This document shows positions 3,440 through 63,832 of a stretch of 64,000 nt of DNA, piece by piece. Location of the stretch: assembly GCA_035994985.1 (NCBI GenBank), contig DASYKZ010000013.1, forward strand, positions 1,834 through 65,833, in the 5' to 3' direction. The position numbers were made by a program, and so were the translations under genes. This stretch comes from Minisyncoccota bacterium. GTDB taxonomy: Bacteria > Patescibacteriota > Minisyncoccia > Phycocordibacterales > UBA9973. Within the stretch, counting starts at the first letter, position 1. Each line of letters opens with the position of its first letter. Below the pieces are notes generated by a model. That model was not told the DNA's origin. It worked only from the letters and a program-made list of their open reading frames with translations, and did no database searches.

Positions 3440-3472
3440 AATTTATACATATTTTGTGTTATAATATAAATT

Positions 3473-5215
3473 ATGCAAATTTTTTATCATTATTTGAAAA
3501 AATACTGGAAGCTTTGCGCGCTTGTACTTGTTCTTGCGCTGATTAACCAGTTCTTCTCTTTGCTTGAGCCATATATCACCCAACTAATTATCGACAGGTA
3601 CGCCACTCATTTTACTTCGCTTACCAAATCTCAATTTTTAAACGGTGTCGGGCTGCTTATCCTCGCTTTTATTGGCACTGCTCTCATTTCGCGGATCGCG
3701 AAGAACTTTCAGGACTACTATTTAAATACCATCAGCCAGCGTTCTGGCGCAGACATGTATCGGGAGGGCGTAAAACATTCGCTTGCTCTTCCATACGGTA
3801 TTTTTGAAGATGAGCGAAGCGGGGAAACGCTGGGCAAGCTCCAGAAGGCAAGACAAGACACAGAAGCACTCATGGTGGCTATCGTAAATACTGTTTTCAT
3901 CTCTCTTGTCATTTTTATCTTCATCGCTATTTATTCTGCGACGATTTATTGGGCAATTCCGATTGTATTCTTCGCAATGGTGTTTATTATCGGCGGCGTC
4001 AGCCTGCTTATGTCCAAACGAATCAAGAGTATCCAAAACGTAATTGTAGCCGAGACGACAGCGCTCGCTGGCTCAACGACTGAATCGCTTCGCAATATCG
4101 AACTAGTGAAATCTCTCGGTTTGACCGGCCAAGAAGTGGAACGCTTAAATACTACAACAAAAAAAATTCTTAAGCTGGAATTAAAAAAGCTCCGCTATCT
4201 TCGCAGCCTGGACTTCGTACAAGGGACGATTACTAATGCCATACGCGCAGGCATGATTTTCTTTCTTTTATACCTGATTTACAATAGGACTATTACCATC
4301 GGCCAATATTTCTCGCTTAATATTTATTCCTTCTTCTTATTCTTTCCGTTGCAACAAGTTGCGCCTTTTATTTCAATGTACCGCCAGGCTGAGGCTTCGC
4401 TTGCCAATTACAGCAAACTCATGGAAATGCCACCGGAGCCAACGCCAGCTACGCCGAACCCAATTGGCGAAGTGAAAAACCTTGAATTCAAGAATGTTTC
4501 TTTTGGCTATAAATCCACAAATGAAAACGCCCTTTCTAATATTTTTTATAAAATCTCGCGCGGCAACACGATTGCCTTCGTCGGCCCATCCGGTTCTGGC
4601 AAGACATCCTTGGTAAAGTTATTAGTAGGACTGTATGTGCCGACCGAAGGGGAAATATATTTCAACGGTTTTCCATTTGAATCTATTGACAAAGAAGAGC
4701 TCCGCCGGCAAATCGGCTTCGTGACGCAAGACACGCAGCTTTTTGCGGGTACCATACGAGAGAACCTACTTTTCGTAAAGCCGGACGCGACAGACCCCGA
4801 GTGCCTAGATGCCTTGAATAAAGCGCAATGCCAAAACTTACTGGAGAGGGGAGGCAAGGGGCTCGATACTGTTATCGGCGAGGGGGGAGTAAAAGTTTCC
4901 GGCGGGGAAAAGCAGAGGCTCTCCATTGCCCGCGCGCTTCTGCGCCAGCCGTCAATTTTGATATTTGATGAAGCGACGTCGTCCCTCGATTCTTTGACCG
5001 AAGAAGAAATCACCAAAACCATCCGCGACGTGTCTACAGGCCATTCGCGCATTACTATACTCATCGCCCACAGGCTCTCGACGATTATGCACGCAGACAC
5101 TATTTATGTACTTGAAAAAGGCAAAATGACTGAATCAGGTTCGCACGCGGAACTTCTCGGCAAACAAGGGCTGTATTCAGCAATGTGGAGGCAGCAAATA
5201 GGCGAAAGAGCGTAA
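3473..5215 (+). CDS. ABC transporter, fused permease/ATP-binding protein (type I exporter, MsbA-like)
   Basis: 6 N-terminal TM helices; Walker A GPSGSGKTS, signature VSGGEKQRLSIARAL, Walker B ILIFDEATSSLD. Confidence 0.9.
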   Translation: MQIFYHYLKKYWKLCALVLVLALINQFFSLLEPYITQLIIDRYATHFTSLTKSQFLNGVGLLILAFIGTALISRIAKNFQDYYLNTISQRSGADMYREGVKHSLALPYGIFEDERSGETLGKLQKARQDTEALMVAIVNTVFISLVIFIFIAIYSATIYWAIPIVFFAMVFIIGGVSLLMSKRIKSIQNVIVAETTALAGSTTESLRNIELVKSLGLTGQEVERLNTTTKKILKLELKKLRYLRSLDFVQGTITNAIRAGMIFFLLYLIYNRTITIGQYFSLNIYSFFLFFPLQQVAPFISMYRQAEASLANYSKLMEMPPEPTPATPNPIGEVKNLEFKNVSFGYKSTNENALSNIFYKISRGNTIAFVGPSGSGKTSLVKLLVGLYVPTEGEIYFNGFPFESIDKEELRRQIGFVTQDTQLFAGTIRENLLFVKPDATDPECLDALNKAQCQNLLERGGKGLDTVIGEGGVKVSGGEKQRLSIARALLRQPSILIFDEATSSLDSLTEEEITKTIRDVSTGHSRITILIAHRLSTIMHADTIYVLEKGKMTESGSHAELLGKQGLYSAMWRQQIGERA

Positions 5216-5273
5216 GCAGGCGCAAAATAGCTTAAAAAAATTCTGAAAAAGTGTTACACCCTGTAATAGAGTT

Positions 5274-5301
5274 TTGCAAAAACTTCACTACGGGGTACAA
5301 T
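5274..5301 (+). promoter_or_regulatory. sigma70-like promoter TTGCAA-N16-TACAAT placed 7 nt upstream of ATG 5309 (leaderless configuration)
   Basis: TTGCAA 5274-5279, TACAAT 5296-5301. Confidence 0.45.
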
Positions 5302-5308
5302 AGAGTCA

Positions 5309-6508
5309 ATGTTAAAGGAGGGACAACTAAGGGTGACATACGGGGGCTGGTACCAGCGGACGACGCTTCATTTGAGTGAAGTGCATTTTTTGTTTATGGG
5401 CGGCGAGTCAAAATTAAATTTATCAAAGGAAAAACTGAAAAAACTTCACAAAAGCCTTCATCTTGTAAAAGTTTCCAGAGAGCCGGGATATTTTGAATAC
5501 GTAAGGGCGGTTACTGAGTCCGGCATTGAAATCCGCTACTATGAAGACGGCCTGTATACGCTCGAGATTATTACTGATAATGCGGAAGACATAGACAAGA
5601 CACATCAAACCCTGGAAGATTATTTCCAAACCAGGTTACAGCCTGCTTTATCTTATATTTTCTCCCGCGGTGCGCCGACGCCAAAACAGCTTGCTAACAT
5701 CAAGACGGTTCATCCGGTAGTGGTAAGTTTTCGAGAGAAAGAAAATAGCAAAGAGGGTAATACTTTTAAGGTTGATGAATCAATTTTTGGAGAAGTGTAT
5801 TCTAAAATCACCAGCAACAATCTTACTGTATACAAAACCCCGAAGTATATTTTTATATCTGCTTCCACTGGCTCTACTAAATCCTTAGTAGATTTAATCG
5901 GTATGCAAATTTTCTTCCGTGAATTCAAAGACCAACTGGAAAAATATTTACATATCCACCGTACCATCTGGGAAGAAATCTCTACTATCAAAGAAGCGAA
6001 AGTGATTAAGGGCAAAGACGTGGAGACTCTCCGCGGAAAGCTCGATACGTATCAGAAGACCATCAATCTCATCAGCAACAGAATCAATCAGATGGGTTCA
6101 TATGTGAGTACTCGTTCAAGCATCGCGAAACATTTGGAAATTGAAAAAGATCTCGTGCAGCTTTTCGAATATAAATTTGAGACTCTTACAGATACGCTGA
6201 CCTATATAAAAGAAATATGGAAAATGACCGGAGACTATCTTGCATCGGCTATTGCCAATATGGTGGAAATAAAAAATCAGAGTACAAGCAACAATTTGAA
6301 ATCTCTCCAGACTATTACCAGTATCGGAGTCATTTCCGGAGTGCTTGGCTACTTGTCAGCCAGCAAGCTGCCCTCCATAAGCTTTTCTGGGCTTATATAT
6401 TTTATAATCCTGTTCGGCATGACCTGGCTCATGAATTATGTTATAATCAGAAAATACAAGAACAAGGAATATAGCTTGAAATTTGGCGAACGGGCTAAAA
6501 ATCTCTAA
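5309..6508 (+). CDS. hypothetical membrane protein (large cytoplasmic N-domain + two C-terminal TM helices; CorA-like topology, GMN motif degenerate to GMT)
   Basis: C-terminal ...IGVISGVLGYL...IILFGMTWLMNYVIIRKYKNKEY; alternative SD-led GTG start at 5332. Confidence 0.4.
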   Translation: MLKEGQLRVTYGGWYQRTTLHLSEVHFLFMGGESKLNLSKEKLKKLHKSLHLVKVSREPGYFEYVRAVTESGIEIRYYEDGLYTLEIITDNAEDIDKTHQTLEDYFQTRLQPALSYIFSRGAPTPKQLANIKTVHPVVVSFREKENSKEGNTFKVDESIFGEVYSKITSNNLTVYKTPKYIFISASTGSTKSLVDLIGMQIFFREFKDQLEKYLHIHRTIWEEISTIKEAKVIKGKDVETLRGKLDTYQKTINLISNRINQMGSYVSTRSSIAKHLEIEKDLVQLFEYKFETLTDTLTYIKEIWKMTGDYLASAIANMVEIKNQSTSNNLKSLQTITSIGVISGVLGYLSASKLPSISFSGLIYFIILFGMTWLMNYVIIRKYKNKEYSLKFGERAKNL

Positions 6509-8670: not shown

Positions 8671-8687
8671 ATTGATAAAATTAAGCT

Positions 8688-9131
8688 ATGAATAACAATG
8701 CAAAAATCTTTTTGGGAGTAATAGGTATTTTAATTTTAGGCACGATTGCGACTGTAATTTTGCGCGGCGGTGCAACCGCGCCGGCAGGGCCGGGGAAATA
8801 CGATGAATTCGCGACTTGCCTAAAAGACAAAGGCGCGGTATTTTACGGGGCTTTCTGGTGTCCGCATTGCCAGGCTGAAAAGAAGCTCTTTGGCTCTTCA
8901 GTAAAGCTTTTGCCGTACGTAGAGTGTTCTACAGCTGATGCAAGCGGACAGACGCAAATCTGCATAGATAAAGGCGTAAAGAGCTATCCTACATGGGAAT
9001 TTGCCGATATGTCCCGTCTTACCGGAGAAATTCCATTGCAACAACTGGCAGATAAAACTTCCTGCGTCCTTCCGGGCGGCGAAGCAGCTCCCGCACCCGT
9101 AGAATCAGGAGCAAGCACTACCGTACAATAA
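8688..9131 (+). CDS. thioredoxin-like (DsbA/BdbD-like) protein with CxxC (WCPHC), membrane anchored
   Basis: N-terminal TM; CPHC active-site motif. Confidence 0.6.
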   Translation: MNNNAKIFLGVIGILILGTIATVILRGGATAPAGPGKYDEFATCLKDKGAVFYGAFWCPHCQAEKKLFGSSVKLLPYVECSTADASGQTQICIDKGVKSYPTWEFADMSRLTGEIPLQQLADKTSCVLPGGEAAPAPVESGASTTVQ

Positions 9132-11828: not shown

Positions 11829-11909
11829 TAAATAATAGGGTTGACAAAATAGGTATAATATGTTATTCTTCTAAAGAATTTTAGTTTCTTTGTAAATTGG
11901 AGGTAATCC

Positions 11910-12881
11910 GTGGCAAAAATTCTCGACTTTTTTGATCCCGCTGATGTGCGGGGTGGGCTTTGGAGATTGATTGTGCTTGGTCTCGTTTCAATGACGATAC
12001 TTCGCACTATCATGAATCCCTCTCCGGTTATTTTTACTATCGGAGAAGCAGGAACCGGGGACTATGTCTCCATGATTGCTATGAGTGCGTTACTTATAGC
12101 AATTGACGCGATGCTACTAGTTTTGCTGTCGTGGGGTAACCTTCGCGACTGGCGGGATGCTCTTGGTGTTGCGGCAATGGTGGGAGCTACTCATGTAGTA
12201 TTTCCATTGTTAACTTTTAGCCTCACTGCGGGAGCGGCTTTGTTCACTAGCGCCCTTAATCTTCCGACTGTGATAGCAGGTGGAGTGCAAACAGCGATTT
12301 TTTTCATCGCATTTGTATTTGTCGCAATGCATCTCCGGGAGGTTCATTCGGCGGTACGGGAAAGGGATCCAGAATTCTTTGAACCCGATGCACCGGTTGC
12401 AACTTGGGCTGGAGTTAAACAAATCTGGCCGGCGGTGTTCGCTGTTTCAGTTGATGCGCTAATGGTTGGCCCTGCAAAAGTTGCTTTTATGGCCCGCTAT
12501 TCAACACTTCAGTTTGGGTTTTCATTTCTGTTCATAGGGACTATAGTTTTTGTCTTGGTGTTCGGGAGTGGAATTATTGTTCTTGTTCTGAAAAAGTTCG
12601 TTAAGAACCATAGCTCTATCTCGGAACGAGTTCATAGCCTTGACTGGATCGGCTCTCTTGGATTGGTTGCAGTTTTTATTCACTTCAGTATCTTCGCATT
12701 TGTGTATGTCTTGTTTACTCTAGCGAAGGTGGAGTGGAAGATGGAATGGTTACTTCAAACTCAGACTATCTGGGGAAGTACGACAGTCATCTTTTCTCTG
12801 TATCTAATTTTCGGACGGATACGAGAAATTAAAGAGGCAAGTCGGCAACGTGCTGGCATGGCCGAATCCATAACGGTCTAA
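11910..12881 (+). CDS. hypothetical polytopic membrane protein (GTG start with canonical GGAGG SD; locally GC-rich)
   Basis: 8-9 predicted TM helices; aaattGGAGGtaatccGTG. Confidence 0.5.
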   Translation: MAKILDFFDPADVRGGLWRLIVLGLVSMTILRTIMNPSPVIFTIGEAGTGDYVSMIAMSALLIAIDAMLLVLLSWGNLRDWRDALGVAAMVGATHVVFPLLTFSLTAGAALFTSALNLPTVIAGGVQTAIFFIAFVFVAMHLREVHSAVRERDPEFFEPDAPVATWAGVKQIWPAVFAVSVDALMVGPAKVAFMARYSTLQFGFSFLFIGTIVFVLVFGSGIIVLVLKKFVKNHSSISERVHSLDWIGSLGLVAVFIHFSIFAFVYVLFTLAKVEWKMEWLLQTQTIWGSTTVIFSLYLIFGRIREIKEASRQRAGMAESITV

Positions 12882-15428: not shown

Positions 15429-18050
15429 TTACTGACAACTGTCACACAATAAAGCATCTTGAGGGTCTTCAGGCAGATGTATCTTGAGCTTATTAAGAGA
15501 AGGCGCTGGTGTCCCCGCCATAGCGGCAACTGGTGGCGGGGTTGGAGCTTTAACTGTGCTTACAGTATCCATAACTACTTGAGATAAAACCGGGCTGACA
15601 GATTGTGCCTCTGCCAGTTCTTTTTGTTCTGTTTGCATTGGCTGCTTATCTTTTAGCACAGCGAAACCTCTCTTGCCGAGGGCTTCAGCTTTGTTGACCG
15701 AAGTAGTAGATTGTTCAGCGACGTGGCGGGGCTTCATGTGCAAGTAGTATGTGGTCTTGAGCCCCTTGTCCCATGCAGTTGTATAGATATTCATAATTTC
15801 ATTAATGTCGCGGACTTCCAGATACATATTGCGGGAGATTCCCATGTCCACCCATTTCTGCGCCCGGGCCGCTACTTCTATAAAGGCATAAGGGGATACA
15901 GAGAAAGAAGTTTTGTAGATTCTTTTTATATGGTCAGGGATTTCTTCAATATCTGCGAGGTCTCCATGATGTTCAAGGATTTTTTCCCGTGTCGTCTCCC
16001 AAAGATTTTCTGCCTGTAAAGCTTTCATCATGTTTGGGTTTACTTCCAGGTATTTTCCGGAAATTTTATTTCGGGAAAACATTTGGGTAAACCTTGGGTC
16101 GATGCCCGGGCTTGTGCCTGCCACCAGTCCGATATTTGCATTCGGAGCAATCGCGAGCAAGGTAGCGTTCCTGATTCCTTTTTTGACTTTAGAGCGGAGA
16201 GTATCCCAGTCAAGGGCAGGCAATATTCTTGCTGATTCTTTTACTACGGTAAGCTCGCGGTTCCGGTCGTGTTCCAATTTTGCGAGAGTATCCAGAGGCA
16301 CTTCTCCCTTTGACCAGCCAGAACCCTTGAAGTTCTTGTAGCTTCCGCGTTCTTCGGCCATATTTGCGGATTCGTCTATAGACATATAAGAAATAAATTC
16401 AAAGATTTGGTCTGCGAAGTCATATGCGGCGGCATCTTCATATGAATAGCCGAGCTGTTCTATAGAATCCGCGAAACCCATGAGTCCGAGTCCCACAGCC
16501 CTGTTTTCATTGTCAGCCTTAATTGCTTCAGGGATTGGGAGCTTGTTGATATCGACGAGGTTGTCGAGCTGTCGGGTGGCCAGGCGTACGGAATCTTCCA
16601 GCCTATGCCAGTCTATCTGGCCGTCTATGATATGACGGGCCATATTTATGGAAACTAGGTTGCAGACGGCTACATTTTCCCTGTCTGTCGGCAAAGTGAC
16701 TTCGGTGCAGAGGTTGGAACAGTGAATAGTGCCGGTGTTGTTGTTTAAAGCCCTTAAGTTTATGGCATCTTTCCAGGTGAGCCATGGGTGGGAAGTAGTT
16801 TCGAGAGAAATCAAGATGTTTTTGTATTGCTGGCGGGCAGGGATGACTTCATGCATCTTCATACGGCCCGCTTTAGCGAGTTCCACGTATTCATTGTATC
16901 TTTTTGAAAATTCCTTGCCCACTAATTCGTTCAAATCTTGGACTTCGTTTGGGTCAAACAAATACCAATCGTCGCCTTCAAGCACTCTTTTCATAAATTC
17001 ATCTGAAATAAATACCGCAGTATTGGCAGTTCTGGTTCTTCGGTAATCATCTCCATTGTTTTGTTTTAAGTCTAGGAAATCCTGGAAGTTCAAGTGCCAG
17101 TTTTCCATGTAGAAACAGAGGGCGCCTTTTTTCTTGCCGCCCCGCTGCACAGCCCGCACTGCAGAGTCTATTATATGGATGAAAGGCACCGGTCCGGATG
17201 AAACAGTATTGTTTGATTTTAAAACAGAGCCTTCGGCACGGAGCTTGGTGACTGAAAGCCCGATGCCGCCCGTTGCCTTGGACAGCAAGAGTACATCAGA
17301 TACGGTCTTGCCGATGTGTTCCATGTCATCATGAATTTCCATCAAGAAACAATTTGAAAGCTTTGGATTCGGAGTGCCGGCGCCGATGTTTGAACTTCCA
17401 GCAGACAAATATTCCAGCTTGGACATTTTATTGTAAAACTTTTTCGCCCACTCGTTTGGGTTTTTTTCATTCAAAGACATGCCCATAGCCACTCTCATCC
17501 AAAAATACTGGGGAGTCTCTAGCGGAGCCTGCTTCTCATTTTTCATCAGGTAGCGGTTTTGCATCGTAGAGAGCCCGGAGTATTTATATAGTTCATCGTT
17601 TTCTACTTTCAAATCTTTTGCCAAATCATCAAGGTCGAAAGTCGTAGCCATTCTCGTGTCGAGAAGGCCCCTGTCGACTGCATCCATTACGTATTCCTTG
17701 AAATGCTTGCTGTGCAGCTTTGAAAATTCCTCTTCGCTTACAGTTTTTGACTCATCATTGTCGTAATCTCCTATGACTTTTTTGTAAATTACCTTCAAAA
17801 GCAGGCGGGTAGCTATTTTGTCGAATTCTTCGCCGTATTGCGCGTTTTGCAGGGCAGCGTTTATGGTCGCTGCGTCCATTTCTTCGGTAGTGATGCCGTC
17901 ATATAGAGTGAGCTGGGTCTCTGTAGCTATCTGTATAACCTTACTAATCGGATCCTTTAGCCCATAACATGCTCTTTCAATAGATTTGTTGATGCGGTTT
18001 GCATCGAAAGGCATTTTTGTGCCGTCTCTTTTAGTAATAGTTATATTCAT
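15429..18050 (-). CDS. nrdA: class I ribonucleotide reductase large (R1/alpha) subunit with N-terminal ATP-cone
   Basis: ATP-cone (ITKRDGTKMPFDANRINKSIERA), catalytic N/C/E core (CSNLCTE), C-terminal CDSC redox pair. Confidence 0.9.
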   Translation of the reverse strand: MNITITKRDGTKMPFDANRINKSIERACYGLKDPISKVIQIATETQLTLYDGITTEEMDAATINAALQNAQYGEEFDKIATRLLLKVIYKKVIGDYDNDESKTVSEEEFSKLHSKHFKEYVMDAVDRGLLDTRMATTFDLDDLAKDLKVENDELYKYSGLSTMQNRYLMKNEKQAPLETPQYFWMRVAMGMSLNEKNPNEWAKKFYNKMSKLEYLSAGSSNIGAGTPNPKLSNCFLMEIHDDMEHIGKTVSDVLLLSKATGGIGLSVTKLRAEGSVLKSNNTVSSGPVPFIHIIDSAVRAVQRGGKKKGALCFYMENWHLNFQDFLDLKQNNGDDYRRTRTANTAVFISDEFMKRVLEGDDWYLFDPNEVQDLNELVGKEFSKRYNEYVELAKAGRMKMHEVIPARQQYKNILISLETTSHPWLTWKDAINLRALNNNTGTIHCSNLCTEVTLPTDRENVAVCNLVSINMARHIIDGQIDWHRLEDSVRLATRQLDNLVDINKLPIPEAIKADNENRAVGLGLMGFADSIEQLGYSYEDAAAYDFADQIFEFISYMSIDESANMAEERGSYKNFKGSGWSKGEVPLDTLAKLEHDRNRELTVVKESARILPALDWDTLRSKVKKGIRNATLLAIAPNANIGLVAGTSPGIDPRFTQMFSRNKISGKYLEVNPNMMKALQAENLWETTREKILEHHGDLADIEEIPDHIKRIYKTSFSVSPYAFIEVAARAQKWVDMGISRNMYLEVRDINEIMNIYTTAWDKGLKTTYYLHMKPRHVAEQSTTSVNKAEALGKRGFAVLKDKQPMQTEQKELAEAQSVSPVLSQVVMDTVSTVKAPTPPPVAAMAGTPAPSLNKLKIHLPEDPQDALLCDSCQ

Positions 18051-18181
18051 AGGCTATTATTATAATATTTGTACAAGGTCCCCGCAAGTTAATATCTCTA
18101 AAATCATCATCACAGAAAGCCGGTGGAACTTCGTCAATACTCGCGCTAGAAAATCCTTTAGAATTTTGCTAGAATAGCCCC

Positions 18182-18646
18182 ATGAAGGCAAAAAAAATAG
18201 AGACGAAAAGAATGAGAATAATGGCTTTTGGAACTTTTGACGGATTGCACCCCGGACACATAAATTTCCTAAAACAGGCAAAAAAACAGGCAAAAAAAAC
18301 CTTTCTTATCGTTTCAATTGCGCGCGATAAAAATGTTTTTAAGCTCAAAGGGGAGTATCCAAATAAAAACGAAGCAGAGAGGAAAATTTTATTAAAAAAT
18401 TGTCCCTTGGTAGATAAAGCAGTTCTCTCGGGCGCAAAAAATCATATTCCGCATATTTTAAAAGAGTCTCCGGACATCATCGCGCTCGGATATGACCAAA
18501 AAGCGTACGTAAAAAATTTAAAAAAAGATTTGAAAAATAAAGGCCTTACGGTAAAAATAGTCCGCTTGAAGCCGTACAAAGAGAAAATTTATAAAAATAA
18601 ATTACTTCGCATCTTGAAGCCGCAGCGCCGACAAAAATCCGAGTAA
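18182..18646 (+). CDS. HxGH-motif nucleotidyltransferase (FAD synthetase/cytidylyltransferase-like)
   Basis: AFGTFDGLHPGH motif. Confidence 0.5.
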   Translation: MKAKKIETKRMRIMAFGTFDGLHPGHINFLKQAKKQAKKTFLIVSIARDKNVFKLKGEYPNKNEAERKILLKNCPLVDKAVLSGAKNHIPHILKESPDIIALGYDQKAYVKNLKKDLKNKGLTVKIVRLKPYKEKIYKNKLLRILKPQRRQKSE

Positions 18647-23541: not shown

Positions 23542-23784
23542 TTAGCTGCTTGCCTTTATCAAGATAGATAAAAATGCAAATGCGGCAAAAAGAATCGAAC
23601 AAACAATAGACAAGTAAAAGAGAAACTTTTCAAATCCCCGGCGAGTGTGGTGAAAGCTTCCGGTATCATTGCCGCCTAAAGCGCCACCCAAGCCTGCTCC
23701 GGACTGCTGGAGCATAATAGCTGTTACCAATATTACAGAAAGGATAATCTGCGCGTACGGCAGAATATTCGCTATTAGATTCAT
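23542..23784 (-). CDS. secG: preprotein translocase subunit SecG
   Basis: 80 aa, 2 TM, MLQQSGAGLGGALGG glycine-rich loop. Confidence 0.75.
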   Translation of the reverse strand: MNLIANILPYAQIILSVILVTAIMLQQSGAGLGGALGGNDTGSFHHTRRGFEKFLFYLSIVCSILFAAFAFLSILIKASS

Positions 23785-23868
23785 ATAGACCCATTATCGC
23801 ATATAGGGTCCAAAAAGGCAAACTTGTTCAAAAAAGCTCCTATTTTATGACTAAATTCCCACTAAAAG

Positions 23869-28046: not shown

Positions 28047-28080
28047 ATTTATCAGAACAAAAGATGTGTTATAATAGAGT

Positions 28081-40599: not shown

Positions 40600-42165
<1,566 letters not shown>

Positions 42166-42388: not shown

Positions 42389-42391
42389 TAG

Positions 42392-42419: not shown

Positions 42420-42741
42420 AATTTATGGGTATAAACAACACTATGGGTTCACTAGAGAGTCAGTCTACGCAAGACTTTTGTCTAGTGCAAGGATTCGATG
42501 CCTTGAGTGGAGTTCTTTAAGGAAATGTATTGTGCAGTATCAGCTGGAGGTTTTGAGAGAAAAGGGATCTATAAATGCTAATGGTAGGCGTTGTCAGAAA
42601 GTATAATTGACCTTTGATTCAAATAACCGTGAGTGAGAGACCAGCCGTATATGGAAATAAAGAACTTTGGCTCAGGGAGGGGTTGCTTTGGCAAAACCTC
42701 CCTTTAATTTTTGTAAAATACTTTTATGGTACAATTTATTC

Positions 42742-44283: not shown

Positions 44284-44316
44284 AAAAAACCCCACCATTG
44301 CGTGGGTTTTTTGTTT
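44284..44316 (+). terminator. rho-independent terminator AAAAAACCCCAC-cattgc-GTGGGTTTTTTGTTTTT
   Basis: Seen directly after micro-ORF. Confidence 0.65.
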
Positions 44317-44350
44317 TTAATAAAGGGAAGTTTGTGCTAGAATATAACTT

Positions 44351-47696: not shown

Positions 47697-47774
47697 AAAA
47701 TAAAGATATTCTAAAAATTCAAGTTTTTTATCCACATCAAGGCATATGGAGCCGTGTGATATAATTAGAAAATT

Positions 47775-48512
47775 ATGAGCCAATCATACTACATTTTACA
47801 GGACAGAGATCTACTCTTGGACAACCAAGGCAAGCGGTATCATTTAAAAATAAGAGACTTGCCCGAAGAAGAAAAACCCCGGGAAAAACTTTTAAAACAT
47901 GGCTTGGGGGCCTTGTCTGTTTCCGAGCTCTTGGCTGTAGTTTTAAATATCGGTACGACCAAGGAAGGAGTGCTGGAAATGTCAGAGAGGATACTCAAAG
48001 AGTATGGCGAGGGCGGCATCATGAGCCAAAAAAATCCTGCGGTGTTATCCAAAGACCTTGATTTGCCTATCGGCAAATCCATGCAAATCGTAGCCTGCTC
48101 GGAACTGGGCCGGAGATTCTTCCAAAAGAATGATTCTTCTCTCCCCACTATCCGGACTGCCAGCGAAATATTTAATTATGTGGGCGGCATGCGCAATCTC
48201 TCCAAAGAGCACTTGCGGGGCATTTATCTCAATGCCCATTACAAGGTTATCCACGATGAGGTCATTTCCATCGGCACAGTAGATGCTAATATCATCCATC
48301 CTCGGGAAGTGTTCAAGCCGGCGCTGGAGCATTCTGCCGTGGCCGTTATTTTGGTGCACAATCATCCTTCAGGCATTGCTGCTCCAAGCGAAGCCGACCT
48401 GTCGGTGACTGCCCAGCTTGTCGAAGCAGGCAAGCTTTTAGGGGTGGACTTAATAGACCATGTGATTGTCACCAAAGACGATTTCCTTAGTATTCCTGCC
48501 AGGTATAATTAG
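47775..48512 (+). CDS. radC: RadC-like JAB/MPN domain protein
   Basis: N-terminal HhH, JAMM motif HNHPSG. Confidence 0.85.
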   Translation: MSQSYYILQDRDLLLDNQGKRYHLKIRDLPEEEKPREKLLKHGLGALSVSELLAVVLNIGTTKEGVLEMSERILKEYGEGGIMSQKNPAVLSKDLDLPIGKSMQIVACSELGRRFFQKNDSSLPTIRTASEIFNYVGGMRNLSKEHLRGIYLNAHYKVIHDEVISIGTVDANIIHPREVFKPALEHSAVAVILVHNHPSGIAAPSEADLSVTAQLVEAGKLLGVDLIDHVIVTKDDFLSIPARYN

Positions 48513-48522
48513 ATATCAAAAT

Positions 48523-48921
48523 ATGTTTTCCTCTACTCTTTCACCATATACAATATCGCTTGCAAGACCTCTTGCCAAATATTGGCTTGTGAATGACAAG
48601 CCAGCCGCAAGGATATACGTACCTGCGCAAACTCCGCTTGAAGAACAGTCTTTTCATAAGAGCATGCTTTTCCATATTAAAGCGGGGGATTATATCACCA
48701 CTCTTGCCACTATCCTCCGGTTTTTCCAGGAATCCATCCATGATGAGAAAATAACCCCGGAAATGCGGGAGCTCCAACTCGCCTCCATCGGAAATATAAT
48801 CAAAGACCTGCTGTATCTCAACAAGCACTACACGATAGTGTCTAAAGATGAGAAAAAAGCCCAGAAAAAGCCAGATATTTCCCTTAAAAAAGTAAAAGTT
48901 CTAAATGGTAATATGCTCTGA
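48523..48921 (+). CDS. hypothetical protein
   Basis: ORF only; start moved to ATG after radC stop. Confidence 0.35.
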   Translation: MFSSTLSPYTISLARPLAKYWLVNDKPAARIYVPAQTPLEEQSFHKSMLFHIKAGDYITTLATILRFFQESIHDEKITPEMRELQLASIGNIIKDLLYLNKHYTIVSKDEKKAQKKPDISLKKVKVLNGNML

Positions 48922-50133
48922 ATGAAAAATTCTCTGAAAAATTTAAAATTGAAAAGGCGGGCAATTGCGGCGATGGCCTCCATGCATCTTTTTGGCAACT
49001 CTTCCAAAAAGATGAAGGTCATAGGCGTGACTGGTACAAACGGCAAGACCACAGTAGCGACCCTCTTGTATAGAATAGCCATTAAGCTTGGGTTAAAAGC
49101 CGGCCTTATCAGTACAGTTGAAAATCTGGTAAACGGCGAGAAAATGTCAGCGAATTACAAACTGCATAATGCTCCCTCTACCACGCCCGACCCTATCTTT
49201 TTGCACAAATTATTAAATAAAATGGCCCACGAGAAATGCGAGTACGTGTTTATGGAGGTCACTTCGCATGCTCTCGACCAGGATAGGGTTGCCGGCGTAC
49301 ACTTTGCCGGTGGAATTTTTACCAATCTCACCCACGACCATCTGGACTATCATGGGAACATTGAAAATTATTTTGGCGCCAAAAAGAAATTTTTCAAGAT
49401 GCTGCCGCCTGCCGCTTTTGCGCTTTCAAATGCTGATGATAAATATGGACCGAGGATGCTAGAGGGAATCCGGGCTAAAAAATACACATATGGCCTAAAG
49501 AGCAAATCGGATTTTAGTGAAAAGCTAGAAACAAAATTAATCGGAGATTTTAATATATACAATGCTCTTGCCGCATATGCTGCGCTTACCTTGCTGGGCA
49601 TTGATGGTGGGAAAGTAAAAGAAGTGCTAAAAAACATCGAAGCCCCAAGAGGGCGCTTTGAACATTTCACATCGCCAAATGACGTATTGGTTATTGTAGA
49701 CTATGCGCATACCCCGGATGCGCTCGAGAATGTTTTAAAGACTGTGCAAAGCATTTTACCCGCCTCTGGAGGGGAAAAAAGGGGCAAAGTAATTTCTGTG
49801 TTTGGCTGTGGGGGCGACCGCGACCCGCTCAAGCGCCCTATAATGGGGAAAATCGGAGCAATGTTTTCTGATATCGCTATCTTTACTTCTGATAACCCAA
49901 GAGGGGAGAATCCCGAGAAAATAATAGAAGAAATGAAGGCAGATTTATCTGCGGAGGAATTAAGTAAAGTAAAATCCATTCCTGACAGGCGGGAAGCTAT
50001 CTTGGAATCAATCAAACTTGCGCAAAACGGCGACATTATTCTTTGCGCCGGCAAGGGGCATGAAGACTATCAGGAAATCAAAGGAGTGAAAAACCATTTT
50101 GACGACATGGAGGAATATAAAAAAGCTTTCTAA
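48922..50133 (+). CDS. murE: Mur ligase, UDP-MurNAc-L-Ala-D-Glu:diamino acid ligase (MurE-like, short form)
   Basis: IGVTGTNGKTTVATLL P-loop, DYAHTPDALENVL. Confidence 0.75.
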   Translation: MKNSLKNLKLKRRAIAAMASMHLFGNSSKKMKVIGVTGTNGKTTVATLLYRIAIKLGLKAGLISTVENLVNGEKMSANYKLHNAPSTTPDPIFLHKLLNKMAHEKCEYVFMEVTSHALDQDRVAGVHFAGGIFTNLTHDHLDYHGNIENYFGAKKKFFKMLPPAAFALSNADDKYGPRMLEGIRAKKYTYGLKSKSDFSEKLETKLIGDFNIYNALAAYAALTLLGIDGGKVKEVLKNIEAPRGRFEHFTSPNDVLVIVDYAHTPDALENVLKTVQSILPASGGEKRGKVISVFGCGGDRDPLKRPIMGKIGAMFSDIAIFTSDNPRGENPEKIIEEMKADLSAEELSKVKSIPDRREAILESIKLAQNGDIILCAGKGHEDYQEIKGVKNHFDDMEEYKKAF

Positions 50134-50165
50134 AAATATTTTGTTTTTTGTGCTAATATCATTTT

Positions 50166-51530
50166 ATGGTTGATACTATGGTTGATTTCAAGCAATTTTT
50201 TAAAGGCAAAAAGATTACTCTGATGCGGATAGGCTTGCTCGGGCGGGGGGTGGGCGACGCTGCTTTTTTGGCTGAATGCGGAGCCGAAGTTCTGGTAGTG
50301 GACGATGCCCCCAAAAAAGTAATGCAGCTCTCAGTCGACAAGCTGAAGAAATACAAAAATATTAAGTTTAAGTTTGGAAAATATGACCTCAAAGATTTTA
50401 GAAATTGCGACTTTGTGCTGAAAGGTGCAGGTACACCCATAGATTCACCTGAAATAACTCATGCTAAAAAGCACAATATTCCGATAGAAATGGACGTGTC
50501 TCTTTTTGCCAAGCTGGCTCCAGATGTTACCGTTATCGGAGTTACGGGAACAAGAGGGAAATCCATGACTACTGCGCTTATTTATGAAATTTTGTCCCAA
50601 GATATTAAAAACAAAAAGGTTTTTTTAGGCGGGAATGTGCGCGGGATTGCGACATTGCCGTTTCTTAAAAAAGCGAAAGCGGGAGATATTCTAGTGTGTG
50701 AGCTTGACTCTTGGCAGTTGCAGGGTTTTGGTGATTCAAAAATCTCGCCAAATATTGCCGTGTTCACTTCCTTTATGCCCGACCATATGAACTACTATAG
50801 GAATAGTATGAAAAAGTATTTTGGGGATAAGGCGAACATTTTTAAGTATCAAAAAAAGGAAGACGTATTAATTATTCGTCCGAATGTGAAAAAACTAATA
50901 CAAAAAGAACTTAAAAACCTGCCTGCCGGTAGGCAGGGCAGGCTGATTGTGATAAAGGCAGAAGATGCAGATGAGTATACGTCGACCCTGCCCGGAAAAT
51001 TCCAGAAAGAAAATCTGGCTTGCGCCGTAGCTGTGGCTCTGGAATTTGATATATCTGTCTCGCAAATAAAGAAAGCAGTGAGAAATTTTAAAGGATTGGA
51101 AGGAAGGCTGCAGTATTTAAAAACAGTTAAAAGGGTAAAAATATACAACGACAATAACGCTACTACTCCGGAAGCAACCATGGCGGGAATTGAAGCGCTT
51201 TCACTGAATTTTAAAGATAAAAAAATTATATTAATTTGCGGCGGAGCGGATAAAAATTTACCCCTTGATGATTTTATAAAAGTTTTAAATAAATATTGCA
51301 AAATTGTCATTACTATTCCCGGCAAAGGGACTGATAGGCTGCTTGGTAAAAAGCTAAAAACAGAAAATTACCAAGCCAAAAATTTAAAAGAAGCTGTAGC
51401 CAAAGGGGAAGAGTACGCAGAAAAGGGTGATATAATTCTTTTCTCTCCGGCCTTCAGTTCGTTTAGCCAATACAAAAATGAGTACGAGCGAGGTGATGAA
51501 TTTATCAAAATTACAAAAAACTTGAAATAA
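50166..51530 (+). CDS. murD: UDP-N-acetylmuramoylalanine--D-glutamate ligase (MurD-like)
   Basis: Rossmann N-domain GLLGRGVGDAAFLAECGAEV; VIGVTGTRGKSMTTALI. Confidence 0.7.
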   Translation: MVDTMVDFKQFFKGKKITLMRIGLLGRGVGDAAFLAECGAEVLVVDDAPKKVMQLSVDKLKKYKNIKFKFGKYDLKDFRNCDFVLKGAGTPIDSPEITHAKKHNIPIEMDVSLFAKLAPDVTVIGVTGTRGKSMTTALIYEILSQDIKNKKVFLGGNVRGIATLPFLKKAKAGDILVCELDSWQLQGFGDSKISPNIAVFTSFMPDHMNYYRNSMKKYFGDKANIFKYQKKEDVLIIRPNVKKLIQKELKNLPAGRQGRLIVIKAEDADEYTSTLPGKFQKENLACAVAVALEFDISVSQIKKAVRNFKGLEGRLQYLKTVKRVKIYNDNNATTPEATMAGIEALSLNFKDKKIILICGGADKNLPLDDFIKVLNKYCKIVITIPGKGTDRLLGKKLKTENYQAKNLKEAVAKGEEYAEKGDIILFSPAFSSFSQYKNEYERGDEFIKITKNLK

Positions 51531-57310: not shown

Positions 57311-57394
57311 AATATTTTCATTATACGTATTTATAATGAAATAACAAGTAAATACAGCTACCTTTTTCTTAGATTTTTTGCTATAATAAACCAA

Positions 57395-58039
57395 ATGATT
57401 ATCACATATTTCGGAAAACAGTTTTTTAAGATAGAGCAGGGCAAGCTGGTCATAGCTTTCAATCCCGTCAGCAAGGCCTCAAAAACAGGCATCAATACCA
57501 AGTTTGGTGCAGACATTGCTCTGGTTACCGCGAACCATGCTGATTACAATGGCCTTGAGCAGCTCTCCCACGGAGAGCGTTCGCCCTTTATCGTGAATGG
57601 TCCGGGAGACTACGAAGTCAAAGAAATTTTCATCAAAGGCGTATTGTCCAACGCTTCCATTGCCGGCAGGAATTATATCAATACCATTTATTCATTTTCA
57701 GTCGACAATATAAATATTGTATTTTTGGGAGTGCTCGGAAACATAGAGCTTTCCAAAGAAGCCCGCGAAGCAATCAGCAATTCTGATATTCTTTTTATAC
57801 CTATAGGAGGCAAAGACTCCGGGACCGGAGCAAGCTTACTAGATGCCAAAGGCGCGGCCAAGCTGGCCTCTGTCCTAGAACCCAAGCTCATCATACCGAT
57901 GGATTACGACGCTGCCTCGCTCAAAGCATTCCTCAAAGAATCCGGAGAAGAAAAAGCTGAAGTCGTAGACAAGCTGACGCTTAAATTAAAAGATTTAGAT
58001 AATAAAGAGGGGGAAGTAATCGTACTTCAGGCAATTTAA
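57395..58039 (+). CDS. MBL-fold metallo-hydrolase-like protein with degenerate metal-binding motif
   Basis: ALVTANHADYNG in place of HxHxDH; GDILFIPIGG; TATAAT 6 nt upstream of ATG. Confidence 0.4.
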   Translation: MIITYFGKQFFKIEQGKLVIAFNPVSKASKTGINTKFGADIALVTANHADYNGLEQLSHGERSPFIVNGPGDYEVKEIFIKGVLSNASIAGRNYINTIYSFSVDNINIVFLGVLGNIELSKEAREAISNSDILFIPIGGKDSGTGASLLDAKGAAKLASVLEPKLIIPMDYDAASLKAFLKESGEEKAEVVDKLTLKLKDLDNKEGEVIVLQAI

Positions 58040-60752: not shown

Positions 60753-60768
60753 TGTTACAATATAAAAT

Positions 60769-61305
60769 ATGTTTACCGATCCGGTAAAAAACTTAAAAGC
60801 TTTCGGTTTACGGGAAGACAATATTGTTGCGGACTTGGGCGCGGGGACGGGGTATTATACTCTCCCTGCCGGAGCTATTGTATCCAAAGGAAAAGTGTAT
60901 GCAGTGGAAATAACTAAAGATTTTTTGACTACTATTAAAAACAAGGTAGAGGAAGCTCATTTAAACAATGTAGAAATTTTATGGGGCAATGTCGAGGTAA
61001 TCGGCGGCACGCGCATAGGAGATGGTATTCTGGATGCTGTCATCGCTTCCAATATCCTTTTTCAAGTAGAAGACAAGAGTAATTTTATTGAAGAAATCAG
61101 AAGAATATTAAAGCCTCATGGCAAGGTGCTGGTCATTGACTGGACAGTGGATTCCGAAGGGGATTCTGCGGCTATATCACTCAAGGGAGCGTTGCCGAAA
61201 GAAAGAGCTTTTGAAATGTTTGAAAAGAAAGGCTTTGCTTTAGACCGTGACATTGATGCAGGTGCGCATCATTATGGTATGATATTAGTGAAAACCAATG
61301 AGTGA
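60769..61305 (+). CDS. class I SAM-dependent methyltransferase
   Basis: Motif I VADLGAGTGYYTL; TACAAT 7 nt upstream of ATG. Confidence 0.7.
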   Translation: MFTDPVKNLKAFGLREDNIVADLGAGTGYYTLPAGAIVSKGKVYAVEITKDFLTTIKNKVEEAHLNNVEILWGNVEVIGGTRIGDGILDAVIASNILFQVEDKSNFIEEIRRILKPHGKVLVIDWTVDSEGDSAAISLKGALPKERAFEMFEKKGFALDRDIDAGAHHYGMILVKTNE

Positions 61306-61425: not shown

Positions 61426-62721
61426 ATGAAAGGAACCTTCCAACTCATTCTAATAATTATATTCATCGCCGGGGCTATCTTTGGCGTGCTGGTTTTTTCA
61501 GGCGCTATACCTTTGGGCGGCGGCAGCGAGAACACCGCCACGGGTACAGTCGTACTGTGGGGAACTACGAGTTCCGCAGTCATGTCGCCTATTCTTGAAG
61601 AATTTAATAAAGCCAATAAAACATTTTCCGTAAGTTATGAACAGAAATCAGCGGATAGCTTTGACCAGAATTTACTGGAAGCCTTAGCTTCGGGCGCGGG
61701 TCCTGATATGTTTTTCTTGCCGGATAACTTGGCTTTTCATTATTCCAATAAAATTTTTCCGATACCGTATACCAGCTACCCGCTTGTCACTTTCAAAAAT
61801 ACGTTTGCCGGAGCCGGGGAGGTATTTCTGACTTCCGGCGGTATTCTAGCTTTTCCCATAACCATTGACCCGCTTATGTTGTATTACAACAGGAGCATGC
61901 TCGATTCAAATTCAATTATCTATCCGCCTAAAACATGGAATGAATTAGCCACCCAGGCCCAATTACTTACAAAAAAAGACGGAACAAATAAAATAATAAA
62001 AAGCGCTGTAGGGCTTGGTGATTTTTCAAATGTCGCTCATGCCAAAGATATACTTGTGGCTATGTTCATGCAGGCAGGCAATCCTATCGTGACAGCAAAA
62101 AATGAATCTCTTAGTTCTTCTTTGGACGACTTTATAAGCGGGGAAGTTGATCTCGGTTCTATTTTACAATACTATATTTCGTTTGCCGACCCGGCAAGTC
62201 CGATGTATTCATGGAATAAATCTTTTCCAAATTCCACTAATGCGTTTAGCTCTGAGGACGCGGCTTTTTATTTCGGCTTTGCTTCAGAATTTCAGTTTTT
62301 AGTAAACAGAAACCCAAATCAAAATTTGGGAGTAGCTCCGATACCGCAGCTGGGAGATGCATCTTCCAAGTTGACTGCCGGCCGAGTTACCGGGCTGGCC
62401 ATCTCCAGCGCTACTAAAAATCTGGCTACTGCGTTTACCGCAGCTAGCTTGATTGCTACAGGTAACTTTGCCTCAAAACTTTCAAATGCTCTGGCTACTC
62501 CTCCGGCGAGGCGGGATTTGCTTGCTGCTAAACCCGGCGATAGCTACTCTCCTATTTTTTATGATTCCGCACTGTACGGCAAAAGCTGGCTTGATCCGTC
62601 CCCTGACGGAACAAACAATATTTTCCGGACCATGGTGGAGTCCACCCTTTCAAACAACAGGACGGCGAGCGACGCTGTGGATGACGCTAGTTCCAAATTA
62701 GACCTTTTATTGTTAAGATAA
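61426..62721 (+). CDS. ABC transporter substrate-binding protein, family 1 (sugar-type), membrane anchored, orphan
   Basis: SBP_bac_1-like N-lobe (VVLWGTTSSAVMSPILEEFNK...DMFFLPDN). Confidence 0.65.
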   Translation: MKGTFQLILIIIFIAGAIFGVLVFSGAIPLGGGSENTATGTVVLWGTTSSAVMSPILEEFNKANKTFSVSYEQKSADSFDQNLLEALASGAGPDMFFLPDNLAFHYSNKIFPIPYTSYPLVTFKNTFAGAGEVFLTSGGILAFPITIDPLMLYYNRSMLDSNSIIYPPKTWNELATQAQLLTKKDGTNKIIKSAVGLGDFSNVAHAKDILVAMFMQAGNPIVTAKNESLSSSLDDFISGEVDLGSILQYYISFADPASPMYSWNKSFPNSTNAFSSEDAAFYFGFASEFQFLVNRNPNQNLGVAPIPQLGDASSKLTAGRVTGLAISSATKNLATAFTAASLIATGNFASKLSNALATPPARRDLLAAKPGDSYSPIFYDSALYGKSWLDPSPDGTNNIFRTMVESTLSNNRTASDAVDDASSKLDLLLLR

Positions 62722-62725
62722 ACAT

Positions 62726-63256
62726 ATGAGCAAAACTACAAAATTTTTAATTTCTTCCGCAGGTTCTCTCTCAATACTCATTATGCTTGTCATGCCTGCT
62801 TTATCTTTTGCACAAGTGCCGAAAGGGATACAAATAGAAAATGGAGTAACCGGCGGATTGGTTCCTTGTGGCAGAGCCGTGACTTCAAGCGCTAAAAAAG
62901 GGGATGTAGTGGGAACCACTGCTCCTGGCACTAACGGTGAAAATGAAAATGTTGTAGCCAAGGTTGATACAGGCTCAGTAGTTAAAAACCCATGCGGCTT
63001 TGACGATGCCATAACACTCGTGAATAATATCATCAGCTATATACTTTTTTATCTGGCTATTCCCATCGTGGCGATAATGTTTGTGTACGCAGGCGTCCTT
63101 CTGGTGACTTCGGGCGGGGATACGGGAGCAAGGACAAAGGCCAAGAGTGCTTTCCTAAACGCGGCTATCGGCCTTATTTTAGCTTTCGGCTCGTATATTA
63201 TCATTAAACTCATTTTGCATACACTCGGTTACAACGGGGCTTGGATTGGTTTTTAA
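62726..63256 (+). CDS. TrbC/VirB2-like pilin-type small secreted membrane protein (paralog 1)
   Basis: Signal peptide, hydrophilic region, then two hydrophobic helices separated by short Gly loop (VYAGVLLVTSGGD...AAIGLILAFGSYIII). Confidence 0.4.
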   Translation: MSKTTKFLISSAGSLSILIMLVMPALSFAQVPKGIQIENGVTGGLVPCGRAVTSSAKKGDVVGTTAPGTNGENENVVAKVDTGSVVKNPCGFDDAITLVNNIISYILFYLAIPIVAIMFVYAGVLLVTSGGDTGARTKAKSAFLNAAIGLILAFGSYIIIKLILHTLGYNGAWIGF

Positions 63257-63280
63257 ATTACTTATTGATATAATATAAAC

Positions 63281-63832
63281 ATGAAATTTTTTAAGAAAAA
63301 TATAGCTATGAGCTTATCATCAATATTCATTATGGTAGTTGTATTATTCAGTCCCGTAGTAAAAATTAATGCGCAATCACAATTTCAACCATGTGTTTAC
63401 AACTCTCAAGGTAATGCTATAAATAATCCGTGTGGTTTATTATATCCAAACTCACAAACACCACCAACACAACCCGTCGGCACTACTCCAGCAGAACAGC
63501 CTGTTGGCACCACTCCTAGTGAACAACCCGTCGGCACTACTCCTTCCGGCTCCGCCAGCAATAGCGACGGTAAAATTCATAACCCGCTTGGAGCTACAAA
63601 CTCAATACCTGATTTAATTAAAAATGCTTTAGAGGATGTGCTCAAAATATGTATACCCGTCGTTGCTCTGGCCATTATTTATTGCGGTTTTCTTTTTGTC
63701 TTTGCCATGGGCAATCCTGAAAAATTAAAAAAAGCCAAAGATGCCCTCTTATACACCGTGATAGGTGCAGCCATACTTTTGGGAGCTTTGGCTATAGCCG
63801 ATATTATAGTGACCACTGTGCAGGGACTTTAA
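63281..63832 (+). CDS. TrbC/VirB2-like pilin-type small secreted membrane protein (paralog 2) with QPVGTTP x3 repeat
   Basis: Same architecture; IPVVALAIIYCGFLFVFAMGNPEKLKKAKDALLYTVIGAAILLGALAIA. Confidence 0.4.
   Translation: MKFFKKNIAMSLSSIFIMVVVLFSPVVKINAQSQFQPCVYNSQGNAINNPCGLLYPNSQTPPTQPVGTTPAEQPVGTTPSEQPVGTTPSGSASNSDGKIHNPLGATNSIPDLIKNALEDVLKICIPVVALAIIYCGFLFVFAMGNPEKLKKAKDALLYTVIGAAILLGALAIADIIVTTVQGL

Follow-up and report, generated by a model that had tools for sequence, protein, structure and literature searches.

Extended -10 boxes 6-7 nt before ATG start codons and a 16S rRNA without an anti-Shine-Dalgarno sequence in a genome segment of Candidatus Nomurabacteria

The 64 kb stretch of DNA analysed here (the window) has a GC content of ~42%, with a GC-poor stretch (32-34%) at about 28-36 kb, and holds ~60 genes as predicted by a simple codon model. 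It contains a single bacterial 16S rRNA gene, and no tRNA, 23S, or 5S genes were found within the 64 kb. Two features of this locus are the subject of our study: many of its genes present a hexamer resembling the bacterial -10 promoter box a few nucleotides before their ATG start codon, with almost no Shine-Dalgarno (SD) motifs in the window, and its 16S rRNA gene lacks the anti-SD sequence. Judged from its sequence, the source is an uncultivated bacterium of the candidate phyla radiation (CPR), belonging to Candidatus Nomurabacteria within the Parcubacteria/Paceibacteria group. An identical copy of its SecA (44351-46897) is present on metagenome contigs of the Joint Genome Institute (JGI; locus L001). 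As a clade set we used the 80 GTDB species, represented by metagenome-assembled genomes (MAGs), that are closest by SecA (77-88% identity) and are mostly labelled Candidatus Nomurabacteria, Paceibacterota, or Patescibacteria; the pooled clade analysis comprised 838 genes from 80 related loci, 1.1 Mb in total.

A preliminary description of this DNA had listed twelve genes as a minimum with a -10-like hexamer just before the ATG. Each of the twelve coordinates does bear both elements, and we identified twelve further sites (8688, 18050(-), 23511(-), 23784(-), 28081, 29448, 34639, 38751(-), 39212, 48922, 56177(-), and 62726). The pattern thus held, while some of the distances originally given were 1-2 nt off: the measured gaps of the listed genes are all 6 or 7 nt, and at 42742 (given as 8 nt) and at 35633 and 36590 (given as 7 nt) the gap is 6 in each. 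TGn lies directly 5' of the hexamer, as in an extended -10 element, in 9 of the 12 listed sites and at 17 of the 24 sites classed as leaderless-type in our curated list of the window. By this curated count the box is located at 5-8 nt in 24 of ~61 genes, and nine more genes have it 9-13 nt before the ATG, so that their predicted leaders would be only 2-7 nt long. When starts were assigned mechanically as the first ATG, a hexamer with at least 5/6 matches, A2 and T6 being required, occurred at a spacer of 6-8 nt in 19 of 60 genes, compared with 3.2 ± 1.7 (maximum 10) in 5000 composition-preserving shuffles of the upstream regions; other spacer triplets gave only 0-7 genes each. In 80% of the window genes a T or C occupies position -1, and G, at 13-15% in positions -11 and -10, drops to 2-10% at -9 to -1. 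The 6-7 nt spacing, the T or C at -1, and the A at +1 suggest that transcription would initiate 7-8 nt 3' of the hexamer.

The same association appears when gene calls are not used at all. In the window, all eight occurrences of TGnTAnnnT-N6-ATG and four of the six with N7 are gene starts. Among 3141 TGnTAnnnT sites over 81 species, the spacer of 6 nt is followed by 187 ATGs, 157 of which open reading frames of at least 80 codons, and the spacer of 7 nt by 130, with 100 such open reading frames (ORFs), while at other spacers ATG occurs 20-115 times with 30 ORFs or fewer. Only ATG is enriched; GTG and TTG remain at background. Leaderless initiation requires AUG exclusively (compare PMC8459731). 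These counts bear on the possibility that AT-rich intergenic DNA, together with misassigned starts, generates the pattern, the true starts lying downstream behind ordinary leaders. The AT-rich intergenic DNA does make TAnnnT hexamers common (1-3 per spacer position off the peak), and several starts are ambiguous (24103/24118, 42667/42742, 57290/57395, and 39032/39212). We nevertheless find this explanation scarcely credible, given the excess over the shuffles, the confinement of the peak to 6-8 nt, and the long ORFs opened by the ATGs at spacer 6. Moreover, the ATG is the earliest possible start codon of the ORF in 9 of the 12 listed genes, the Pfam domains of these proteins begin at residues 1-17, and in the stretch covered by L001 the JGI gene calls chose identical starts for seven pattern genes (34639, 35633, 36590, 38751, 42742, 44351, and 50166), five of which were among those listed (35633, 36590, 42742, 44351, and 50166).

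The clade set reproduces the arrangement, and in this genome and its relatives roughly one gene in three carries the box 6-7 nt ahead of the ATG. The spacer profile of the extended -10 element peaks at 6 nt (74 genes), followed by 7 (29) and 8 nt (14), and stays at 0-4 almost everywhere else (n = 838). The sequence logo reads TRTGnTAwaAT; its spacer is T-rich, and a weak TTG stands 17 nt upstream. At the TG positions, T reaches 85% and G 76%, and R precedes them. A TRTGn extended -10 element with such spacing is the sigma-A promoter form of low-GC Gram-positive bacteria, and the configuration found here, TGn 5' of TAnnnT with a dispensable -35, is that of sigma-70/sigma-A extended -10 promoters. 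A generic promoter scan that requires a -35 element did not pick up these sites because they have no good -35. The distribution of the motif follows gene organization: it precedes 3% of overlapping genes, 42% of those with a divergent neighbour, and 63% of those whose gap exceeds 400 nt. Orthologues of operon-head genes keep it, namely secA (74/80 species), ddl (40/50), the gene of the MBL-fold hydrolase at 57395 (32/35), the methyltransferase gene at 60769 (6/6), and the histidine phosphatase gene (3/3 found); it is lacking in most orthologues of operon-internal genes, where it was counted in 6/63 for the Mur ligase at 48922, 3/50 for murC, and 1/40 for the S1 protein. In most species the secA box adjoins an intrinsic terminator hairpin with its T tract, which leaves no room for another promoter or leader.

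We also weighed the idea that the TAnAAT-like element is an AT-rich, non-SD signal for the ribosome or protein S1 in leadered mRNAs, as in the Bacteroidetes-like group B of GeneMarkS-2. In its favour, all upstream regions are A/T-rich and G-poor, the window encodes an S1-domain protein (55095-56261), and some motif-bearing genes lie only 0-33 nt after the previous gene. The group B motif, however, precedes first and internal genes alike (PMC6028130), whereas no motif common to first and internal genes was found here: the box is rare before overlapping genes, and internal orthologues show only a general A-richness. In addition, the TRTGn extension and the weak -35 at 17 nt are hallmarks of recognition by RNA polymerase, terminators adjoin the motif, the spacing is sharply 6-7 nt with ATG alone enriched, and similar boxes stand 8-10 nt ahead of two tRNA genes, which are not translated. 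We regard a ribosome-binding role as quite improbable, and these observations support the view that the box behaves as a promoter and not as a translation signal.

The heads of tRNA genes served as a translation-free control, and TGnTAnnnT was present at 8-10 nt in only 2 of 40, with a few further near-matches, in a set in which many genes seem to be co-transcribed with those upstream; this control lends weak support to the promoter interpretation. The two boxes precede the mature 5' ends of a tRNA-Leu (locus L053, at 6665) and a tRNA-Ala (locus L080, at 2676), one example being TGGTATAAT-N8-tRNA-Leu, and near-matches were seen in L019, L036, L041, L055, and L076. Transcription of some tRNA genes may thus likewise begin almost at the mature 5' end.

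Consistent with the scarcity of SD motifs noted previously, GGAG, GAGG, or AGGA within -20 to -1 occurs in 3 of 60 genes of the window, compared with 4.6 ± 2.0 in shuffled sequences and 7.3 expected at the window-wide rate. Among the 80 relatives (1.1 Mb) we found no SD enrichment either (100 versus 94 ± 8 genes) and no positional peak. The gene at 11910 had been singled out as the only one preceded by a clear SD and as compositionally atypical. The first point is correct, GGAGG-N6-GTG being the sole strong SD at a genuine ORF 5' end, and one strong SD-like site among ~60 starts is roughly the chance expectation. The second is not: with a GC of 0.46 and a GC at third codon positions (GC3) of 0.43 the gene is ordinary; the one low value is a crude codon score, which a hydrophobic protein would be expected to give.

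On the rRNA side, no CCUCC follows helix 45 of the 16S rRNA, as the preliminary description had stated; the tail ends in ...GGAAUAAUUCAAUUUGAAA (GGAATAATTCAATTT). The sequence after helix 45 is GGAATAATTCAATTTGAAA, in place of GGATCACCTCCTTA at the corresponding position in E. coli. In all 47 relatives with a captured 16S end (48 loci including the window) the tail is GGA(A/T)TAATTCAATTTGAAA, identical or near-identical, and the sequence beyond the conserved GGAWTAATTCAATTTGAAA diverges immediately. Helix 45 itself shows a compensatory C-G/G-C exchange (GGCTAGCGGAAGCTGGTC versus GGGTAGCGGAAGCTGCTC). The mature 16S 3' end is predicted to lie within the tail ...AAUUCAAUUU(GAAA). It could be argued that the anti-SD persists elsewhere, in a further 16S copy or in an exon located 3' of an insertion, or that the tail is removed and replaced during maturation. 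Passages in two papers describe CPR rRNA genes as often carrying insertion sequences (PMC11270868, PMC9297842), and a single rRNA locus is visible in the window. This argument has to face the conservation of the tail in 47 relatives while its flank diverges. Within 1.5 kb 3' of the 16S gene, CCTCC occurs 25 times in 48 loci, below the approximately 41 expected by chance, scattered and never in a GATCACCTCCTT context, which makes a split or displaced anti-SD unlikely. The mRNAs of the window and of the relatives carry no SD signal, as a real loss of the anti-SD predicts (PMC6107228), and the anti-SD motif has been independently reported as missing in about half of Parcubacteria (PMC9297842). 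A concealed anti-SD is, on balance, very improbable. A substitute pairing was also looked for and rejected: 5- and 6-mers complementary to the tail are not enriched at -22 to -1 of 564 boxless genes (6-mers in 94 genes versus 83 ± 8 in shuffles), and the only enriched k-mers there are generic A/T words, such as AAATT and AATTA.

Several other properties of the 16S locus were recorded. The gene stands alone, and its 5' leader at 40552-40575 (GCTGTTTTTTGTTTTGTTTCGTTC) is a near-perfect complement of 42327-42351 (GAACGAAACAAAACAAAGTACAGC), about 160 nt past the 3' end; the two probably form a precursor processing stem, and the leader sequence is kept in most relatives with a full 16S. At about 41760-41810 the gene has an extra helix-like insertion (CGACAAAGTTTTTGTCCCTCAAAGTTTTCGGGACGAAATTTTTGCCG) with respect to the E. 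coli sequence, and 16S lengths among relatives range from about 1530 to 1640 nt.

Our interpretation, which we hold with considerable confidence, is that this is a CPR genome devoid of both anti-SD and SD, in which extended -10 sigma-A promoters sit on the ATG and give leaderless mRNAs, the rest of the genes being initiated independently of SD. The leaderless architecture put forward in the preliminary description draws its support from the operon-head motif, the ATG-only enrichment, the absence of SD, and the conserved anti-SD-less tail, that is, from inference on sequence. RNA polymerase holoenzyme would recognise TRTGnTAnnAT, with a weak or absent -35, and would preferably start 7-8 nt after the hexamer, at the A of the ATG. 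The resulting mRNAs would begin with AUG or have at most 1-3 extra bases before it, and a ribosome carrying fMet-tRNA and IF2 would recognise the 5'-terminal AUG directly. Downstream cistrons would most likely be served by termination-reinitiation coupling together with ribosome access to A-rich, G-poor, unstructured starts, and such SD-independent initiation of the remaining genes fits the loss of the anti-SD.

The organization of the internal genes fits these two routes, which have been discussed as SD-independent modes of initiation (PMC6107228). Among same-strand gene pairs, 42% are separated by 10 nt or less, with peaks at -4 (ATGA), +1, +3, and +4. The 20 nt upstream of internal genes contain 40-68% A, with 6-10% G near the start (-8 to -1), and codons 2-3 are A-rich. 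Predicted folding of 40-nt windows at internal starts is weak (-1.6 versus -3.9 kcal/mol inside genes, p about 1e-21), and the predicted leaderless mRNAs are likewise less structured over their first 40 nt than internal windows are (-2.8 versus -4.8, p about 5e-13).

Several observations weigh against a uniformly leaderless interpretation. Of the ~32 operon heads of the window, about 10 lack a -10 box in the 15 nt before the start, for example 1912, 6528, 26402, 54300, and 61426. Some predicted promoters are located in gaps of only 0-33 nt after the upstream gene (48922, 60769, 62726, and 63281), so translation from these ATGs could take place, additionally or alternatively, on polycistronic mRNAs produced by read-through. 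The membrane-protein ORF at 54300 has a hairpin, GCGGAGCA(N2-4)ACCGC, 5-7 nt before its ATG (54240-54302) that is kept in 30 related species, with further semi-conserved sequence 5' of it; this conserved structured leader implies that leadered mRNAs exist as well, and the 54300 mRNA is probably leadered and regulated. Finally, the comparison with other CPR contigs described below relies on few, short, and noisy contigs, with shadow ORFs in the set and one or more contigs that are probably chimeric.

For that comparison, one metagenome scan with a CPR-like helix-45 pattern provided 120 contigs (loci L084-L203), in which ORFs of at least 100 codons were taken from the first ATG and rRNA-like DNA was excluded. 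By their 16S tails, 32 contigs have GGATCACCTCCTT, 80 have no CCTCC, CTCC, or CCTC, seven have a partial core only, and one is too short. The tails without anti-SD and with a GGCA-type helix 45 fall into at least five internally conserved types (GGAWTAATTCAATTTGAAA, GGATTAATTCCAATTGGA, GGAWTATTTCAAG, GGATCATTTTTT/GGATCAATTAAAC, and others), alongside the canonical GGATCACCTCCTTTCT; the anti-SD was therefore seemingly replaced in several ways, or else it was lost once and the tails diverged from then on. A -10 box at 6-8 nt precedes 65 of 384 ORFs in the anti-SD-less contigs versus 12 of 144 in the anti-SD-bearing ones (Fisher p = 0.012), which points in the same direction as the earlier suggestion that the anti-SD-less 16S has its counterpart in the architecture of the mRNAs. 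An SD peak over the control window appears only in the anti-SD-bearing set (20 versus 5), and none was found in the largest anti-SD-less tail group (6 versus 6). In the anti-SD-less group GGATTAATTCCAATTGGA, five of the seven SD-like sites come from contig L177 and were discounted. At positions 200-3300 of L177 (16S orientation), five genes with strong AGGAG or GGAGG stand beside an anti-SD-less 16S; the GC of this flank is 0.55, versus 0.43-0.49 on the other side of the 16S, and L177 is probably a chimera joined at the conserved rRNA gene.

The coordinates of the individual sites are collected in Table 1.

Table 1. Promoter-like boxes, short-leader sites, and related features of the window
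Feature	Position	Strand	Gene and remarks
TGTTATAAT + 7 nt + ATG	3457..3475	+	ABC transporter gene 3473-5215; ABC_membrane domain from residue 17
TACAAT + 7 nt + ATG	5296..5311	+	gene 5309-6508
TGATAAAAT + 6 nt + ATG	8673..8690	+	thioredoxin-like gene; not in the preliminary list
TATAAT + 8 nt + ATG	18048..18064	-	ribonucleotide reductase large subunit 15429-18050; ATP-cone from residue 4; not in the preliminary list
TGCTAGAAT + 6 nt + ATG	18167..18184	+	cytidylyltransferase-like gene, divergent from 18050
TGCGATAAT + 8 nt + ATG	23782..23801	-	secG; not in the preliminary list
TATATT + 6 nt + ATG	24106..24120	+	deoxyhypusine-synthase-like gene
TGTTATAAT + 5 nt + ATG	28067..28083	+	small ORF 28081-28296; not in the preliminary list
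TGCTAAAAT + 6 nt + ATG	34624..34641	+	YgjP-like gene; JGI start identical; not in the preliminary list
TGCTATAAT + 6 nt + ATG	35618..35635	+	gene 35633-36124
TACAAT + 6 nt + ATG	36578..36592	+	VIT1-family gene
TAAAAT + 8 nt + ATG	38749..38765	-	histidine phosphatase gene; domain from residue 6
16S rRNA gene	40600..42168	+	no tRNA/23S after it; tail about 42157-42175
TGGTACAAT + 6 nt + ATG	42727..42744	+	D-Ala-D-Ala ligase (ddl)
terminator-like hairpin CCCACCATTGCGTGGG + T tract	44291..44316	+	just 5' of secA promoter
TGCTAGAAT + 7 nt + ATG	44335..44353	+	secA
TGGTAATAT + 7 nt + ATG	48906..48924	+	Mur ligase gene 48922-50133; weak
TGCTAATAT + 6 nt + ATG	50151..50168	+	second Mur ligase; relatives vary: 14/58 at 6-8 nt, 17/58 at other short spacers
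TGCTATAAT + 7 nt + ATG	57379..57397	+	MBL-fold hydrolase; domain from residue 3
TGTTACAAT + 7 nt + ATG	60753..60771	+	methyltransferase gene, 16 nt past gyrA stop
TGTTAAGAT + 6 nt + ATG	62711..62728	+	T4SS-pilin-like gene; not in the preliminary list
TGATATAAT + 6 nt + ATG	63266..63283	+	second T4SS-pilin-like gene
TGATATAAT + 9 nt + ATG	47757..47777	+	radC, short-leader class; predicted 5' untranslated region about 2-3 nt
other short-leader sites	9140, 11496, 28381, 31171(-), 37898, 48523, 57310(-), 58263		
GGAGG + 6 nt + GTG	11894..11912	+	no second strong SD-like site at any ORF 5' end of the window; gene without Pfam family

Other observations concern individual loci of the window. The S1-domain protein (- strand) has 388 aa, or 360 aa with ATG 56177 as its start codon (TAAAAT lies 7 nt before this ATG), and contains three clear S1 repeats; bS1 of E. 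coli has more, namely six. This protein is relevant to SD-independent initiation. For the DnaJ-domain gene (- strand), the JGI start at TTG 57394 leaves no intergenic space before the divergent 57395; a start at ATG 57310, with TATAAT 9 nt upstream and an 84-nt divergent promoter region, seems more plausible. For the 54300 ORF the JGI start is TTG 54426. Just past the 16S terminator, the segment 42392-42712 (+ strand) includes TTGACA-16-TATAAT (12/12), the best sigma-70 consensus in 20 kb, followed by about 290 nt without a convincing ORF; these are closed by a hairpin (GGGAGGGG...CCTCCCTTTAATTTTT) immediately 5' of the ddl promoter. This segment may be an unannotated small RNA; only one 57-nt patch of it is kept, in 1 of 80 relatives, and JGI calls a 31-aa ORF there. 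Rfam at permissive thresholds gave no credible match in 42150-42760 or 53950-54500. The GC-poor island at about 28300-34600 (GC 0.27-0.36, GC3 0.21-0.36) encodes an N6_N4_Mtase with a LexA-type DNA-binding domain (30071-31171, - strand), a D12-class methyltransferase (31332-33185), and a DUF4325 protein, and is probably a mobile restriction-modification or defence island.

Among known systems, the closest likeness is to group C of GeneMarkS-2, which includes Actinobacteria and Deinococcus-Thermus, has a Pribnow box 6-8 nt from leaderless starts, and keeps SD on the other genes (PMC6028130). As in Mycobacterium, Streptomyces, Corynebacterium, and Deinococcus, the box in the window lies 6-8 nt before the first genes of operons and is confined to them, between a quarter and a half of the operons have this arrangement, and the start codon is (here, by prediction) the transcript 5' end. 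Unlike those lineages, which keep a canonical anti-SD, ours has neither SD nor anti-SD, its promoters are of the low-GC TRTGn extended -10 type, and it belongs to the CPR. SD-type ribosome-binding sites on the remaining genes are missing here because the anti-SD is gone. We found no mention of the CPR in the main text of the GeneMarkS-2 paper (PMC6028130).

The rRNA feature has been described for the same superphylum by Tsurumaki et al. 2022 (RNA 28:1041, PMC9297842), who found CCTCCT in only 48% of Parcubacteria 16S genes and inferred that SD helices do not form. They report an overlap of this trait with loss of ribosomal protein uL1; the ribosomal-protein operons lie outside the window and the loci retrieved here. 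Their study covers the rRNA and ribosomal-protein side only; the word "leaderless" is absent from it, and the mRNA architecture is not described (PMC9297842). More generally, organisms without the anti-SD (CCUCC) also tend to lack SD and any motif complementary to the variant tail (PMC6107228), and loss of the anti-SD accompanies ribosome reduction in tiny genomes (PMC7782861). Flavobacteriia/Bacteroidota, Mycoplasma, Carsonella, and other tiny-genome symbionts include bacteria without an anti-SD or without SD use; those lacking CCUCC resemble our window in having no SD or tail-complement motif, and their starts are A-rich and unstructured (PMC6107228, PMC7782861). They differ from it in that here a sharp leaderless signature accompanies the loss. 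A dominant promoter-at-ATG architecture is not known from these groups, and Bacteroidota mostly retain the anti-SD and sequester it.

Outside the Bacteria, mammalian mitochondrial mRNAs start at or next to the start codon. The mitochondrial small-subunit rRNA has no anti-SD (PMC10582724). The likeness is an analogy only, with no evolutionary link; mitochondrial mRNAs come from processed polycistronic precursors, not from a promoter ahead of each gene, and rely on specialised factors. In the archaeal group D (Haloferax, Sulfolobus) the majority of operon heads are leaderless and a 5' AUG is likewise initiated independently of SD, but the promoter box lies about 26 nt upstream and is served by TBP/TFB, in contrast to the bacterial -10 at 6-7 nt. 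We found no description of a leaderless architecture in CPR, Parcubacteria, or Nomurabacteria in open-access papers and bioRxiv, an absence that is not proof. The rRNA half is thus already published and leaderless architecture is a known class, each known separately; their combination in this lineage was not found described in that literature. What we see looks like a coherent, largely foreseeable rewiring of translation initiation and not a new principle.

A more far-reaching version, which we consider unlikely though worth stating, is that Nomurabacteria, and perhaps all anti-SD-less Parcubacteria, possess a complete, mitochondria-like SD-free system in which leaderless mRNAs are the only route to translation of operon heads and reinitiation is the only one for downstream cistrons, the strictly conserved tail GGAAUAAUUCAAUUUGAAA having acquired a new selected role. 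That role may be in subunit maturation, 70S-type initiation, or recognition of the start site or 5' end, the tail then not being a decayed remnant.

Our results connect the anti-SD loss already published for Parcubacteria with what follows from it for the mRNAs. If confirmed, a large and environmentally abundant clade would express its genes without SD/anti-SD pairing, through leaderless operon heads and coupled, unstructured internal starts, a bacterial case comparable to the leaderless translation of mitochondria and archaea. A practical outcome is a start-annotation rule for CPR MAGs, the ATG 6-7 nt after TRTGnTAnnAT, where start prediction is otherwise unreliable, as in dnaJ (TTG 57394) and at TTG 54426. 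Should the fully rewired version hold, this large free-living or episymbiotic clade would be a natural bacterial model in which to study SD-independent initiation and the proposal that the leaderless mode is the ancestral default.

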